This document shows positions 3,370 to 62,599 of a DNA stretch of 64,000 nt, in pieces. The DNA lies in contig JAWMAR010000181.1 in NCBI GenBank assembly GCA_036785375.1, positions 1-64,000 on the forward strand, given 5' to 3'. The DNA comes from Leucoraja ocellata (taxonomy: Eukaryota). Within the stretch, counting starts at the first letter, position 1. Each line of letters begins with the position of its first letter. A program made the translations under genes and the position numbers. The notes under the pieces are model-generated. The model worked only from the letters and a program-made list of their open reading frames with translations. It made no database searches and had not been told where the DNA came from.

Positions 3370-4077
3370 CCATGCGTCTGTCTCTTATTATTTTTGACCC
3401 GTTGGATGTATGTTTTTGGTTTTAATTTTTATTATTTTTTAGCTGTGTATATGTGTGTGTGGGGGGGGGGGGGGGGGGGAAACCATCGGGTCTCCAGTGT
3501 CGTTGGGCCTAACATCGTGGAGCGGGCAGTGGCCTCCAACCGGAACCAACCTGAGGGCTCCAGTTGCGGAGCCTGCGGACTCGCCATCACGGAGCTGTTG
3601 TGGCGCGCGGCTGCGACCCGACGTCGGAGCTTTTGAGGCTCCGGCCGCAGGCCCGGTGGACAGGAACATCGGAAGCTCGCTGGTCCCTGGTGGAAGACCG
3701 CATTTCCGTGCTCCCGCAACGGCAACTTCTCCCGACGGAATCGTGGGGTTTAAATGATCCGGAGCGGGGCCTAACATCTCCTGGCGTGGCTTAAAACGGC
3801 CGCGGGACTTACCCTCGCCCGCTGGGGGCTTTAACATCATGAGCCCCAGTTGCCTCAACGTTGCAGTTGGACTGCTGGACCGCGGGAGAAGAACAAAGGG
3901 AAAATATAAGACTTTTGCCTTCCATCACAGTGAGGAGGTGTTGGAGATGCACTGTGATTGATGTTTGTGCAAATTGTGTTAAGTGTGTGTCTTGGTTTTT
4001 CTTGTAATGTCATGACTGTAGGAATGAAATTTCGTTCAAACCTTGTATATTTGAATGACAACAAAAGGCATTCTATT
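3370..4077 (+). mobile_element. GC-rich non-autonomous retroposon with Rex1-like 3' tail (copy 1)
   Basis: Homologous to 10898-11497 and 11498-12283. Has a poly-G tract, repeated GGGC(C/T)TAACATC motifs, a CATCACAGTG/CACTGTGAT hairpin and a 3' end TTCAAAC..TTTGAATGACAA plus microsatellite tail. Confidence 0.75.
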
Positions 4078-8082: not shown

Positions 8083-8165
8083 AGCTTACTCCCAAATTAA
8101 CTCAACTCCCTCACACTATAAAAATCTTTATCCTTTAAACTGTACCTTTACTAATAAATACTGTA

Positions 8166-8590
8166 CCCTTAACTCACAGATCCCTTAACTCACAGATCCC
8201 TTAACTCACAGGTCCCTTAACTCACTGATCCCTTAACTCACTGATCCCTTAACTCACTGATCCCTTAACTCACTGATCCCTTAACTCAAAGAACCCTCAA
8301 CTCACAGATCCCTTAACTCACTGATCCCTTATCTCACTGAACCCTTAACTCAAAGAACCCTCAACTCACAGATCCCTTACCTCACTGAACCCTTACCTCA
8401 CTGAACCCTTACCTCACTGAACCCTTACCTCACTGAACCCTTACCTCACTGAACCCTTATCTCACTGAACCCTTATCTCACTGAACCCTTACCTCACTGA
8501 ACCCTTAACTCACAGAACCCTTATCTCACTGAACCCTTATCTCACTGAACCCTCAACTCACAGAACCCTCAACTCACAAAACCCTTAACC
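8166..8590. repeat. 16-bp minisatellite (CCCTTAACTCACTGAT variants), about 26 copies, in the CR1 5'UTR
   Basis: Period 16 read directly from the sequence (units start at 8166, 8182...). Confidence 0.95.
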
Positions 8591-8712
8591 TGAAAGCAGA
8601 AATGTAAACCTGGGGTTGCACCAAATCAGTTGCTTCCTCTGGTCCTCTCCCACCAATCAGAGGCTTCCACCAGACTCTTTCTCTGGAAGTGAGATGGAGC
8701 GCTGCAGATTTT

Positions 8713-16352: not shown

Positions 16353-16978
16353 TTAGGCCCCTTTCAAATCTTTATCACCACTCGGCTTCTAGGTTCTCCT
16401 TATAACTCAAACTTTCCAGACCCAGTAACATCCTCATAAATCGTTTATGTATCCTTTCCAATTCAGTAGTTATTTTTCTCATTGTTATATATGAGGCATG
16501 GAAATGACCAAATTACCTTGCATGTGAATCCCAGGAAACACATATTAACCTTTGAATAGAGGCACTGCTGAATTACACTGTGGTGTAACTTCTCCACTTA
16601 TGATGACAGGTTTCATAAACCTGACCTGAAACTTCATCTCCATTTCTCGCTCTGCAAATTCTGCATGACTTGCTGAATATTTCCAAACTATGATTAATTT
16701 ACTGGATTTATTTCAGAGTTCCAGTAACTGCAAGTCTTGTTTTTTTCTTTTTGTATTAAGTTGGTTGCATAAAAATTCCTGGCTTGCTGGTCATTTAAAT
16801 TTGGTGTAGACCACAGTGTCTTGTCTATGGTCTTTGTTTGTTCTTTTGCACTATGTATTGTTGGTGAGATTTGTGATTTGTGATGTGGTATGGATGCACT
16901 TTATTACGGTGATCTGTGTTATTAGTGGTATGTAACTAAAGCAGTGTACCATCATGTAACGAACCCAAATACCACCAA

Positions 16979-17072
16979 GTTTGAAGAAGGGTTTCGGCCT
17001 GAAACATTGCCTATTTCCTTCGCTCCATAGATGCTGCTGCACCCGCTGAGTTTCTCCAGCATTTTTGTGTAA
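16979..17072 (+). mobile_element. 94-bp Penelope terminal-repeat insertion with hammerhead-like core and 14-bp TSD
   Basis: CCAAATACCACCAA at 16965-16978 and 17073-17086; the insert matches about 45994-46088. Confidence 0.85.
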
Positions 17073-17109
17073 CCAAATACCACCAACCCATGTTGCGTGG
17101 CAAATAAAG

Positions 17110-28509: not shown

Positions 28510-29086
28510 ACTGTAAGGCAGAAACTCTACCACTGTGCTGCTCTAAACCCAGTGAGATTAGTATAGATAGATATGTCTAATAGTCAGCATTGCACAGTAG
28601 GCTAAGGAACAGTTTATATGCTGTACATCCCTGACTCTGTAACCTGCAAATGAAGTGATGTTAATATTATATGAGCGTGGCAGTTTATTTCTCTCCGGAG
28701 GCAGGAGTTCTTTTTCTTTTGCCACTGAAACTTCATGACTCGACTTCAATGTGAAGAAATACAACAACTATGCAGTATGAAAGAAAATACATTGGAAGTC
28801 CCCATGCTAAGCAATTGCATTCTTTTCTCAACAGAAATTAGGAAACATAGAAATATAGGAGGGCTGTCTTGACCTTTAAGCCTGTTTCAGCATTCAATGC
28901 AACATACAATATTGTATGTTAATGCAATATCCCTGTGCTCTCCCTAAACCACGGACTTCCTCCACTGACTTCTGTTCCAGAGAATTCTATTCATTTACAA
29001 ACCTCTGGGTGAGATATTTCTCCTTATCCCAGTCCTAACTGTCTTAATCCATCCTAGCAAATTGAGACCATCAGTAGAAACATCCT

Positions 29087-29497
29087 GTTCAAGAAGGAAC
29101 TGCAGATGCTGGAAAATCGAAGGTACACAAAAATGCTGGAGAAACTCAGCGGGTGCAGCAGCATCTATGGAGCGAAGGAAATAGGTAACGTTTCGTGCCG
29201 AAACCCTTCTTCAGACTGATAGGGGGTGGGGGCAGGGGGTGGGGGAAAGGAAGAAAAAAGGAGGAGGAGGAGCCCAAGGACTGGGGGATGGGATGAGACA
29301 GCCTGAGGGCTGAGGAAGGGGAGGAGACAGCAAGGGCTAACAAAATTGGGAGAATTCAATGTTCATGCCCGCAGGATGCAGACTCCCCAAGCGGAATATG
29401 AGGTGCTGTTCCTCCAATTTCCAGTGTTGCTCACTCTGGCAATGGAGGAGACCCAGGACAGAGAGGTCGGATTGGGAATGGGAGGTGGAGTTGAAGT
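29087..29497 (-). mobile_element. Penelope-like element 3' fragment (GIY-YIG C-terminus + terminal repeat), 13-bp TSD
   Basis: HFNSTSHSQSDLSVLGLLHCQSEQHWKLEEQHLIFRLGSLHPAGMNIEF; TSD GTAGAAACATCCT at 29074-29086 and 29498-29510. Confidence 0.9.
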
Positions 29498-29914
29498 GTA
29501 GAAACATCCTCCCTGGATCCAATCTTTCCAGCTCTGTGTGAAATGCGTACACATCCATATGATCCCCTCTCATTCTTCTAAACTATACTGTATGAAGGCC
29601 TAGTCAAACCTGCCTCTCCTCATACAGAAGTCCTTCCATCTCAGGGATCAGTCTTGTGAACTTGCATAGCAATTGTATCCTTTCTTGGGCGAGGAGACCA
29701 ACATTGCACACAATACTCCAGCCTCTATATAATTGCTACGAGACACCCTTTCTCCTGTACTCAAACCCCTTACAATGAAGGCCAACATACATTATTTTAG
29801 TTCTGACAAAAGGTCTTGGACCTGATATATTAACTCTATGTCGCTTTCCACAGATGCTGCCTGATATACTGACCAGCATTTTCTGTTTTATACCATGCTA
29901 CCCACCATCTGCAG

Positions 29915-40269: not shown

Positions 40270-42027
40270 TAATGGGATACAAGCAAATGGCACAACAGTT
40301 AAACAAGTACTTTGGTTCTGTCTTCACCAAGGAACAAACAAACAATCTCCCAGAAATACTAGGGGACCAAGGATCTAGTGGGAGGGAGGAACTGAAGGGA
40401 ATCCACATTAGTCAGGAAATTGTGTTAGCTAAACTGTTGGGACTAAAGGCAGATAAATCACCAGGACCTGATGGTCGTCATCCCAGGGTACTCAAGGAAG
40501 TGGCCCTAGAAATCGTGGATGCATTGATGATCATTTTCCAATGTTCTCTCGACTCTAGATCAGTTCCAGTGGACTAGGGGGTAGCTAATGTAACCCCACT
40601 TTTTAAGAAAGGAGGGAGAGAGAAAATGGAGAATTATAGACCAGTTAGTCTTACATTGGTAGTGGGGAAGATGCTTGAGTCGATTATTAAAGATATTATA
40701 GCAACGCATTTGGATAGCAGTGACAGGATCAGTCAAAGTCAGCATGGATTTATGAAGAGGAAATCATGCTTGACTAATCTTCTGGAATTTTTTGAGGATG
40801 TAACAAGTAGAATGGATAAGGGAGAGTCAGTGGATGTGGCGTATCTGGACCTTCAAAAAGCCTTTGACAAGGTCCCACACAAGAGATTAGTGTGAAAAAT
40901 TAGAGCACATGGTATTGGGGGTAGGGTATTGACATGGATATAGAACTGGTTGGCAGACAGGAAGCAAAGAATAGGAATTAACAGGTCCTTTTCAGAATGG
41001 CAGGCAGTGACTAGTGGGGCACCACAAGGCTCGGTGCTGGGACCCCAGTTATTTACAATATATATTAACGATTTAGATGAGGGAATGTGACATCTCCAAG
41101 TTTGCGGATGAAACAAAGCTGGGGGGCAGTGTTCGCTGTGAGGAGGATGCTATGAGGCTGCAGGGTGACTTGGATAGGTTGGGTGAGTGGGCAGATGCAT
41201 GGCAGATGCAGTATATTGTGGAGAAATGTGAGATTATCCACTTTGGTGGCAAGAACAGGAAGGCAGATTGTAATATGAATGGTGTCAGATTAGGAAAAGG
41301 GGAGGTGCAACAAGACCTGGGTGTCCTTGTACATCAGTCACTGAAAGTAAATATGCAGGTACAGCAGGCAGTAAAGAAAGCCAATGGCATGTTGCCCTTC
41401 ATTGCGAAAAGATTTGAGGAGGTCCTACTGCATTTGTACGGAGCCCTGGTGAGACCGCTCCTGGAGTATTTTGTGCAATTTTGGTCTTCTAATAGGAGGA
41501 CAGACATTATTGCTATTTTAGGAATGCAGTGTAGGTTCTCCAGGTTAATTCCTGGGATGACAGGACTGACATATGATGAAATAATGGCTCGACTGGGCTT
41601 GTATTCAGTGGAATTTAGAAAGATGAGAGGGGACCTTATGGAAACATTTAAAATTGTTAAAGGATTGGACACGCTAGATACAGGAAAAATGTTCCCCATG
41701 TTGGGGGAGTCCAGAACCAGGGATCACAGTTTATGAATAAGGGGTAGGCCATTTAGGACTGAGATGAGGAAAAACATCTTCACCCAGAGTTGTGAATCTG
41801 TGAAATTCTCTGCAGATTCTCACAGAATGCAGTGGAGGCCAATTCACTGGATGTTTTCAAGCGAGAGTTAGATATAGCTCTTATGACTAAAGGAATCAAG
41901 GGATATGGAGAAAAAGTAGGAACGGGGTACTGATTTTAGATGATCAGCCTTGATCATATTGAATGGTGGTGCTCGCTCGAAGGGCTGAATGGCCTACTCC
42001 TGCATCTATTTTTCTATGTTTCTATGT
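40270..42027 (+). mobile_element. CR1 LINE, 1.75-kb 3' portion with degenerate RT
   Basis: ORFs 40272..40577, 40626..40895 and 41077..41736 (KSPGPDG, NYRPVSL, FADE); tail present. Confidence 0.95.
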
Positions 42028-42029
42028 TT

Positions 42030-42458
42030 ACATAGAAACATAGAAACATAGAAAATAGGTGCAGGTGTAGGCCATTCGGCCCTTCGAGCCTGCACCGCAA
42101 TTCAATATGATCATGGCTGATCATCCAACTCAGTATCCCGTACCTGCCTTCTCTCCATACCCTCTGATCCCCTTAGCCACAAGGGCCACATCTAACTCCC
42201 TCTTAAATATAGCCAATGAACTGGCTTCGACTACCCTCTGTGGCAGAGAGTTCCAGAGATTCACCACTCTCTGTGTGAAAAAAGTTCTTCTCATCTCGGT
42301 TTTAAAGGATTTCCCCCTTATCCTTAAGCTGTGACCCCTTGTCCTGGACTTCCCCAACATCGGGAACAATCTTCCTGCATCTAGCTTGTCCAACCCCTTA
42401 AGAATTTTGTACGTTTCTATAAGATCCCCTCCCAATCTCCTAAATTCTAGAGTATATA
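42030..42458 (-). mobile_element. CR1 3' fragment, tail-to-tail with the preceding copy
   Basis: ORF 42130..42435; (CATAGAAA)3. Confidence 0.95.
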
Positions 42459-45455: not shown

Positions 45456-46124
45456 TGTAGATGAGGTTGGAGGAGATACAGGTGAACCTTTGTCGCACCT
45501 GGAACGACTGCTTGGGACCTTGAATGGAGTCGAGGGGGGAGGTGAAGGGACAGGTGTTGCATTTCTTGCAACCTCCAACCTCCAACCTCATCTACTGCAT
45601 CCGCTGCTCTAGATGTCAGCTGATTTATGTCGGGTTGACTAAGCGGCGGTTGGGCGATCGTTTCGCCGAACACCTCCGCTCAGTCCACAATAACCAACCT
45701 GAACTACCGGTGGCTCAGCACTTCAACTCCCCCTCCCATTCCCAATCCGACCTCTCTGTCCTGGGTCTCTTCCATTGCCAGAGTGAGCAACACCGGAAAT
45801 TGGAGGAACAGCACCTCATATTCCGCCTGGGCAGCTTGCATCCTGATGGCATGTATGTTGAATTCTCCCAATTTTGCTAGCCCTTGCTGTCTCCTCCCCT
45901 TCCTTAACCCTCGAGCTGTCTCCTCCCATCCCCCCGCCCTCGGGCTCCTCCTCCTCCCCTTTTTCCTTCCTTCTCCCCTCCCACCCCCCATCAGTCTGAA
46001 GAAGGGTTTTGGCCCAAAACATTGCCTATTTTCTTCGCTCCATAGATGCTGCTGCACCCGCTGAGTTTCTCCAGCAATTTTGTGTACCTTCGATCTTCCA
46101 GCATCTGCAGTTCCTTCTTGAACA
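45456..46124 (+). mobile_element. Penelope-like element (Neptune-type): GIY-YIG endonuclease + terminal repeat, with an inverted 5' segment
   Basis: SNLIYCIRCSRCQLIYVGLTKRRLGDRFAEH...PVAQHFN...RKLEEQHLIFRL (GIY-YIG with CCHH). The Cys-rich linker CKKCNTCP...FTCISSNLIY lies on the minus strand at 45456-45572. Confidence 0.92.
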
Positions 46125-58923: not shown

Positions 58924-59906
58924 TATATACAACTAAAAACATGATCTTGTTATCTTCCAGTTTGGCGGTCTTTCTATTTGTGCAAAAATGGTTCACAATA
59001 GCACTACGATTTTTCGCCATTCACTCACCGTTCTCCTGTGCTGCTAGTGCACCAAGTTTTGTTCCGATCCGTTGAATGTCGTAAAAGTTAGTGAGGTTTA
59101 AAAATCTTAAAAACCGCGCATGCGCAGATCGATATCTTCTACTACAGTCAGTGCCACGTGGATTAGTCTCTTACCCTGTCACTCCCTGGGATGGTCCGGC
59201 CCTTCCGGCGCCATTGCCTTTACTGGAGCTAGTGGCCGGCGGAGGTTTCCAACCGAACTTTCGGAGGCACCCGAAACAGCTCAGCCCCAAACAGCAGCCC
59301 CGCCCCAAACAGCAGCCCTGCCCCCAGCAGCAGCCCTGCCCCAAGCAGCAGCCCCGCCCCAAACAGCAGCCCCACCCCAAGCAGCAGCCCCGCCCCAAAC
59401 AGCAGCCCCGCTCCAAGCAGCAGCCCCGCCTCAAGCAGCAGCCCAGCCCCGACCTAGCCCAGAGTCGGAGACAAAGTCCAGCCCCGCCGGAGATGTCCCA
59501 CCCACACACCTCTCTACCCCACAACTCCCCCTCCCCCACAACCTCCCCACCCCCACAGCCCACCGCCCCCACATCCCCCTCTTCCACAACCCCCCTCCCT
59601 CGCAACCCCCCAATGGACCCCCCCTCCCCACAACCCCCCACCCACTAACCCCCCCTCCCCCACAACCCCCCATCCACCGCAACACCCCCACAAAACCCCC
59701 TGCCCCACACTCCCCCCCCCTCCCCCCTCACCCACAACACTCCTCCCCACATCCCACCACAACCCTTCCCCCTTCGCAGCCCCCCTCCCCCACAGCAACA
59801 ACCCCACACAATATTGCATTGGGGGATCGGGTGTGTGGTGGAATATTGTGTTGGGGAATGGGTTGCATTGGGGGACCAGGCCTCCCATTGACTGGGACCC
59901 AACGGG
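58924..59906 (+). mobile_element. Non-autonomous Helitron with internal 18-bp minisatellite and C-rich tract; 3' end lost in a gap
   Basis: 5' TATATACAACTAAAAACATGATCTTG resembles 38259; 3' GGGACCAGGCCTCCC...GGGACCCAACGGG matches 39551-39590. Confidence 0.75.
59281..59450. repeat. 18-bp minisatellite (CCCAAACAGCAGCCCCGC), about 9 copies
   Basis: Read directly from the sequence. Confidence 0.92.
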
Positions 59907-61722: not shown

Positions 61723-62599
61723 GAAATTTACTACAAAGTATGATGGAATACCTTTTAGAAGAAGAAATGAGGGGAGATTAAATGGCACATTTTGAGGTAT
61801 GTATGTATGAACAGAAAGGTCAGAGTATGTATATTAATCTTTGAAAATGCTAGCACATTCTGAAGAAGGGTCTCGACATGAAATATCATCTACCTGTGTT
61901 CTCTAGAGATTCTGCATCTCTCCAGCACCTTGTGTCCTTTTTAGCAAATTCTGAATGCAGTTGATAAAACATATGGGATCATTGAATACAAAAGCAAGAA
62001 GGTTATGTTGAAAGTTGATAACACAAACTTAGAAAATACAAACAGGACCTGTGGTGATGTGGAAAACAAGAAACACTACAACAGCAATTGATCAGATGAA
62101 AAGTTGGACAGAGAATTGGCAGATGGAATTTAATTGTTACAAATATGAGGTGATACATTTTGGGAAATCATATTGGACCAAATGCAGTAATTTGTAGGAT
62201 GCAAAGGAATATTGATAAACAGAGGAACCTTGGAACTGAAAATTACCCTCATTGAAAATGTTGACACATATAGATAGGATGGAAAAGGCATGTGGAATGT
62301 TTGCCTTCACAGTTTGGGGTGTAAGTTATTTCTTTAAATGGTGTGTTAAGTTTCACATTAGTGGAATACTGGTTGGACTGGTCTTAGTACATTGTGCACA
62401 ATCCTGGTTGCAACATAATTGCACTGGACACAAACCAAATGAGATTCATTGTTAGGGTCACAATGAATGGATCATTAAATCTCACGCTGCCAGTGACATC
62501 AACTATTTGCGAACAAATAAAATAATTGAAACATTTACTATTTCTATATATATAAATGATAAGTGATGATGATAACTTGTTTATTTGTTTCATAAACTA

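Follow-up and report, generated by a model that had tools for sequence, protein, structure and literature searches.

A mutated minimal type I hammerhead motif in the pLTR of a highly abundant Penelope-like element of the skate Leucoraja ocellata

Introduction

Minimal hammerheads (min-HHRs) of metazoan Penelope-like elements (PLEs) consist of a short helix I, a CUGANGAH box, a G...C helix II, GAAAN, a palindrome and NUH (PMC4209133). In Fig. S3 of that work one consensus recurs, in an unchanged position, in PLEs that range from cnidarians to reptiles, and a helix I of 2 bp is found in the Drosophila, Culex and Oikopleura rows; the min-HHR monomer is described there as uncut, and dimers as cutting weakly. 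PAc, a Poseidon element of Anolis carolinensis, has a hammerhead that needs the element's protein for cutting; the main template of this element is uncut RNA, catalytic mutants insert normally in vitro, and the signature of its tail is explained by two reverse-transcription start sites (PMC11167929). PLE clades without hammerheads spread well, and what PLE hammerheads do is described as unclear (PMC8557442). Hammerhead retrozymes have furthermore been described in one chondrichthyan (bioRxiv 10.64898/2026.07.22.740005). Our search of the literature on hammerheads, Penelope-like and Neptune elements, sharks, skates and pLTR transcription start found no paper on the family treated here.

The insertion at 29087-29497 and its sister copies

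The DNA analysed, called the window below, is a stretch of 64,000 nucleotides from one contig of Leucoraja ocellata (JAWMAR010000181.1). A preliminary description, made from its letters, had read a hammerhead-like core on the minus strand at 29216-29185, and the readout returned the same sequence. This motif (the 29184 copy) has a 2-bp stem I, the CUGANGA box, an extra A, a 4-bp stem II, the GAAA box and half of a helix III without a loop; all core letters are kept, and stem II carries a G.A mismatch at 29196 (C11.2A). The cut is predicted between 29187 and 29186. Stem III had been described as the palindrome AACGUU, of which the four bases 15.1-15.2-16.2-16.1 stand, the outer A14 and U17 being core positions. 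The endonuclease remnant of the insertion holds the last 53 codons of the element's frame, and the motif lies 120 nt behind its stop; a pyrimidine-rich stretch follows the stop, and then come the motif, about 60 nt of pLTR and the tail (Table 1). The TCAGT at the front edge of the motif is initiator-like.

Table 1. Features of the insertion at 29087-29497 and other copies of the motif in the window
Feature	Position	Strand	Basis or remark
Minimal type I hammerhead motif	29185..29216	-	Sequence readout, core-pattern match, folding
5′-truncated Penelope-like insertion (endonuclease 3′ end, pyrimidine-rich 3′ UTR, hammerhead, pLTR, tail)	29087..29497	-	
GIY-YIG endonuclease C-terminus remnant with stop codon	29337..29498	-	Frame end same as in the 1246-aa element frame
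13-bp target-site duplication, 5′ copy	29498..29510	-	
13-bp target-site duplication, 3′ copy	29074..29086	-	
TCAGT motif	29215..29219	-	A (29217, position -3) and G (-2) are the commonest short-copy starts
Optional tail between two preferred 3′ ends	29087..29124	-	Copy boundaries (3′ ends preferred at about +91 to +97 and +125 to +132 from C3); compare PMC11167929
Solo short copy from the motif's front edge, no tail, 14-bp target duplication	16978..17074	+	Core mutated
Longer truncated copy: 5′ inversion (45458-45562), endonuclease remnant, motif 45994-46025, tail	45458..46124	+	
Older, more decayed motif copy	61860..61887	+	Absent from the preliminary description

The sister copies announced near 16979 and 45994 are present, and every named copy is mutated as had been said: besides C11.2A in the 29184 copy, C3U, C11.1U and G16.2A are found in the 16979 copy (C3 position at 16981), and a loop change of C to U, G12A and G16.2A in the 45994 copy (C3 position at 45996). 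A degenerate core pattern gives four matches in the window as against 0.01 expected, a number reached by none of 100 shuffles.

Other repeats also occur in the window. Positions 41977-42087 form a long inverted repeat, a head-to-head pair of another abundant repeat that we take to be a LINE 3′ end; a microRNA was considered there and rejected, the Rfam microRNA matches being below threshold and the sequence being that inverted repeat pair. The stretches 8086-8677 and 59259-59800 hold repeats in tandem (16 and 18 bp) as well as a low-complexity tract rich in C.

Identity and copy number of the element

A very young full-length tandem array, with an intact 1246-aa frame that has a long proline-rich N-terminal part, lies elsewhere in the genome at G000:C1:8664400-8677800. 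Its period is 3985 bp and its units are identical at 3880 of 3881 aligned bases; the motif stands at each junction on the coding strand, one unit has the 1246-aa frame open, and the first ATG is 164 nt behind C3. The frame matches RVT_1 with E 1.5e-6 and 28.5 bits (Pfam cut-off 29.6), and a second copy reaches 30.2 bits, above the cut-off; the GIY-YIG matches are weak and under the cut-off in both copies (E 0.013 and 0.0011). The protein has DKG, YIDD, a CX5CXXC linker (residues 1113-1121) and a GIY-YIG domain with CXXC, HF and GMN; a search of solved structures with it gave no match. With RT, followed at the C-terminus by GIY-YIG, in a single frame, tandem and inverted 5′-truncated copies, a pLTR and a tail, the element is a Penelope-like retrotransposon (EN+), and the attribution of the motif to a Penelope terminal repeat holds.

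The one character that points to the Neptune type is the CX2-5CXXC linker motif. As described in PMC8557442, the Neptune clade shares with the skate element this linker, the C-terminal GIY-YIG, partial tandems, inverted 5′-truncated copies and a tail of 30-40 bp; the skate element differs from it in the long low-complexity N-terminal extension of its 1246-aa frame. PAc differs from the skate element, whose protein has this linker of Neptune-type elements, and the PAc frame, as reported in PMC11167929, starts inside the hammerhead instead of behind it.

The intact consensus that the preliminary description had implied from the mutated copies is abundant: its 28-base core has 28,189 exact matches across the 3.44-Gb genome, and 27 bases taken from just past the predicted cut site have 90,683, the reversed control giving 0 in both cases. 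A structural min-HHR descriptor, which is independent of the stem letters of the Leucoraja Penelope family, found 15 matches in 427.5 kb (45 randomly placed genome stretches), as against 1 in 10 shuffles. Extrapolation from these 15 matches gives about 120,000 descriptor-intact copies genome-wide, and 108 of 108 matches in 1.4 Mb of fetched DNA are from this one clan.

Fit to the published minimal hammerhead

The family consensus fits that of PMC4209133 (Fig. S3) letter for letter, the extra base after A9 included. The core boxes, G10.1-C11.1, the loopless palindromic 15.2/16.2, the location in the pLTR and the strand of the frame all agree, and the 4-bp helix II is intact in the family. Compared with the min-HHRs of PMC4209133, the CUGANGA box with its extra base, G10.1-C11.1, GAAA, loopless palindromic helix III, NUH, short helix I, position in a pLTR behind an RT-EN frame and occurrence mostly as single truncated copies are alike, whereas the stem II of 4 bp and stem I of 2 bp lie at the short end of the published range. 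Chondrichthyans are absent from Table S1 and Fig. S3 of that work, whose highest vertebrate counts are about 4,000 and 9,000, compared with 28,189 exact or about 120,000 descriptor-intact copies here.

Judged by its letters, the motif is of a known kind, the Penelope minimal hammerhead, here in an added lineage, the cartilaginous fish, and the identity as a minimal type I hammerhead proposed earlier agrees with the metazoan PLE consensus (PMC4209133). The Rfam score proposed with it failed: neither the window nor an intact young copy matches any hammerhead family at E<=10. Rfam hammerhead models expect a helix III.

The non-LTR retrozymes of bioRxiv 10.64898/2026.07.22.740005 resemble the short skate copies as hammerhead-bearing, non-coding derivatives of PLE pLTRs. 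As described there they form tandem arrays with units of 170-400 nt, whereas the skate copies are scattered singly and flanked by target duplications, or else stand head to head in pairs.

Conservation and covariation among subfamilies

Copies were anchored on a block behind the motif, which yielded 403, of which 279 have an ungapped motif. Across six subfamily groups of 17-83 copies, the majority letter varies only at loop 2, 11.4, 17 and 1.1; the changes (A/G opposite U at 11.4 and at 1.1, C/U at 17) are all tolerated or wobble-compatible, and several of those in young subfamilies are also of the CpG type. In two very small groups, of 4 and 1 copies, 15.2/16.2 has undergone CpG decay, and single copies decay neutrally, mostly at CpG (G12 11%, 15.2/16.2 11-13%). 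Raw RNA reads from a related organism vary at the same five places and at G12A (15%, CpG), no other place in the motif differing in 12 or more of 100 reads.

Stem I is paired in nearly all of the 166 young copies (164 and 165). Stem II gave no two-sided change among the young subfamily consensuses, where a one-sided U-A/U.G change is all that occurs. A formal pair count did not beat column shuffles (313/500) on 16 hand-picked rows (8 young and 8 of the 29 old, chosen after viewing), and counts from unselected copies were used for the stem I figures instead of this alignment.

An old subfamily has 116 matches to a pattern tolerant of CpG decay, a tight pattern recovering only 2 copies. The tolerant pattern fixed only the 5′ strand of stem I (G-U-C), and 29 distinct copies of 30 fetched were examined. 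Their stem I has 3 bp, with the 3′ strand mostly G/A-A-C, so that letters have changed on both strands: pair 2.2-1.2 forms in 23/29, 2.3-1.3 in 27/29 and 2.1-1.1 in 13/29, the last being C.A in 12 more copies, as CpG decay would give. A at 1.2 is found in 18 of the 29 old copies and in 1 of the 166 young ones. The old subfamily thus shows an apparent compensatory change in stem I, to be counted as one event and not many because the copies are related. In 28 of the 29, C replaces A9, which may be a natural variant of the core or a sign of lost catalysis. The check by conservation and covariation over the family that the preliminary description had called for was largely passed, with no two-sided change in stem II seen among the young consensuses.

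A search for 10.2-11.2 double variants gave 1,245 matches (control 16), mostly from a single derived family in which both stem I and stem II are broken. Among 30 fetched, 17 belong to one element of about 690 bp, and 14 of these 17 have at least one terminal inverted repeat (exact match). This element is non-coding, with TTAA/TTTA-like flanks (e.g. G000:C2:21172623-21175650), and likely has hundreds of copies. It carries a head-to-head pLTR pair in which stem I is broken, and stem II too in nearly all. It looks like a DNA-type mini-transposon that captured the pLTR pair, and also like a natural control, in which the ribozyme would not be needed and hence was lost.

Predicted folding

In the young family a 6-bp hairpin that pairs the loop side with GAAAC, hiding GAAA, is predicted at -5.0 kcal/mol as against -5.1 for stem II, and the pair probabilities are 0.55 for this hairpin and 0.05 for stem II; in the type with a CUCG loop, stem II wins with a probability of 0.81. 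The energy of stem II falls from -5.1 kcal/mol in the intact motif to -1.4 in the 29184 copy. A double-hammerhead fold has -7.1 kcal/mol in an intact copy (dimer minimum -25.0) and +0.9 in the 29184 copy (dimer minimum -20.9), and none of the regions tested folds better than shuffles (z -0.6 to +0.6). In these predictions the hammerhead fold is not favoured by minimum energy, and help would be required for intact copies to fold, as the Anolis element depends on its protein (PMC11167929). The 29184 copy is probably dead, that is, unable to cut, because of the G.A mismatch in stem II and its poor predicted fold.

Copy boundaries and the cut site

Boundaries were surveyed in 92 distinct contexts from the first 100 matches listed, all on one contig and including some segmental duplicates, with the anchor behind the cut site. 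On the 5′ side 32 reach further upstream; starts lie at -6..+3 from C3 in 40 (18 of them at -3/-2), at +6..+24 in 14, and at the cut site and at +30 in 3 each, so that 40 of the 60 starts inside -6..+30 fall at -6..+3. The 3′ ends lie at +88..+97 from C3 in 47/92 and at +124..+136 in 30/92. PAc, as reported in PMC11167929, likewise has a tail, given by two favoured 3′ ends in AC-rich sequence some 35-40 nt from each other, uses uncut RNA as its main template and lacks RNA-seq ends at the cut site. Genome-wide, three foreign bases stand just before -3 in 2,780 of 28,189 intact cores, or about 24% after correction, and about 19 of 30 fetched copies with -3/-2 starts have target duplications (automatic call). 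About a quarter of the copies with an intact core thus start at -2/-3, before the core, and the template RNA was therefore uncut: in most insertions the template held the whole uncut motif, often ending just before it.

Six foreign bases stand before the cut site in 217 of 90,683 copies (2.1% corrected), compared with 39 (0.55%) at a control place four bases on. This raw excess was considered as a footprint of cleavage and rejected, since it consists mostly of 12-base deletions and inversion joints. The 27 distinct cut-site loci comprise 12 inversions, 11 deletions or duplications and 4 direct starts (5 with one misclassed), and the 26 distinct control-place loci 14 inversions, 2 deletions or duplications and 10 direct starts. 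Direct starts at the cut site show no clear enrichment, being about 0.3-0.4% as against 0.2% at the control place. The 12-base deletion recurs inside the motif, and many head-to-head inversion joints lie at its palindromes; by their letters the deletions arise between two short direct repeats, and the complementarity of stem I would give the inversion joints their microhomology. Inversion joints are in threefold excess at the cut site over the control. In two single copies, downstream sequence of the element (about +150..+205, or the tail) is joined before the exact predicted cut site, which could reflect template jumps or circular templates.

In three raw RNA runs from a related organism read ends do not pile up at the cut site, though such libraries would show a pile-up poorly. 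Their reads show the same front edge, with loose ends at -2, -3 and -5 in 877, 1,183 and 876 reads. These runs were chosen by species label, with library strand not given, and 93% of placed reads continue into unlike sequence; they are mostly host read-through, and so uninformative on the element's own transcription. Among indexed datasets holding the sequence, none is recorded as RNA.

Discussion

The motif is most probably a mutated minimal type I hammerhead in the pLTR of a highly abundant PLE; the copy in the window is likely dead, and intact master elements would carry a slow, conditional ribozyme, cutting after U/C17. Cutting would likely need a second copy, helix III being built from the four-base palindrome, and folding would probably need the element's own protein. 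Such cutting may trim tandem read-through transcripts or remove the RNA 5′ end. The RNA would be made from an internal pLTR promoter, plausibly starting in TCAGT, and the element's RT would set out from either of two AC-rich sites, 95 or 130 nt farther along; short stubs would result where RT runs to the RNA 5′ end, and longer truncated copies, 29497-29087 among them, where it goes on back through a tandem unit. We infer catalysis and its dependence on dimer and protein, as well as an uncut RNA 5′ end 2-3 bases before the core in most insertions.

For the bias of starts, the main alternative is that RT stops or switches template at the edge of the motif. A splice acceptor, formed by a pyrimidine tract and CAG, was also considered behind the -3/-2 starts, and spliced RNA may play a part; however, the copies that begin there abut target duplications and not a constant upstream exon.

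It is rather unlikely that a former hammerhead is now kept mainly as a non-catalytic signal, be it an internal promoter start, a point of RT stop or template switch, or a protein-binding site. Starts gather at the front edge of the motif (about 24% at -3/-2) and make up at most 2.1% at the cut site, where 23 of 27 loci are inversions or deletions/duplications; the competing hairpin and the spread of the old subfamily with C at position 9 argue the same way, as do the Anolis mutants that insert normally in vitro (PMC11167929) and the success of hammerhead-less PLE clades (PMC8557442). However, all core letters are fixed in the well-sampled young consensuses, even at the fast-decaying CpG of 15.2/16.2 that is lost in 11-13% of copies, position 17 keeps to C or U, stem I covaries, and a homologous kind of motif does cut in Anolis (PMC11167929). 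An accidental likeness or an unselected frozen relic, the sameness of copies being due to recent amplification of a few masters, is very improbable: the few differing places in young subfamilies, which limit the power of the tests, the neutral decay of copies with CpG hot spots and the missing Rfam score would suit it, but it is largely refuted by position and by a consensus that PLEs of hosts from cnidarians to reptiles share in the same position (PMC4209133, Fig. S3), and 15 descriptor matches against 0.1 expected, the single clan behind 108 of 108 matches in 1.4 Mb, the compensatory stem I of the old subfamily and the broken stems of motifs riding in a DNA-type element also speak against it.

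Within the reading as a hammerhead, we tentatively raise a more specific possibility, although we would not wager on it. RNA may start at the A of TCAGT, so that the hammerhead would be its first 31 bases, acting as a self-decapping switch gated by protein or dimer and repressed by the hairpin; the uncut front end would be on record in tens of thousands of stubs across the genome. If true, this would explain a stem I of only 2-3 bp, and the role of PLE hammerheads would become directly testable.

To a known class of ribozymes the skate family adds a lineage, the cartilaginous fish, that the tables of the 2014 survey lack, together with a very high number of copies. Its value lies in a fossil record of the poorly understood copying cycle of PLEs: the family includes young full-length tandems, and more than 90,000 copies with sharp starts and ends constrain the starting points of the RNA and of reverse transcription, as well as the question of whether the ribozyme cuts the template.
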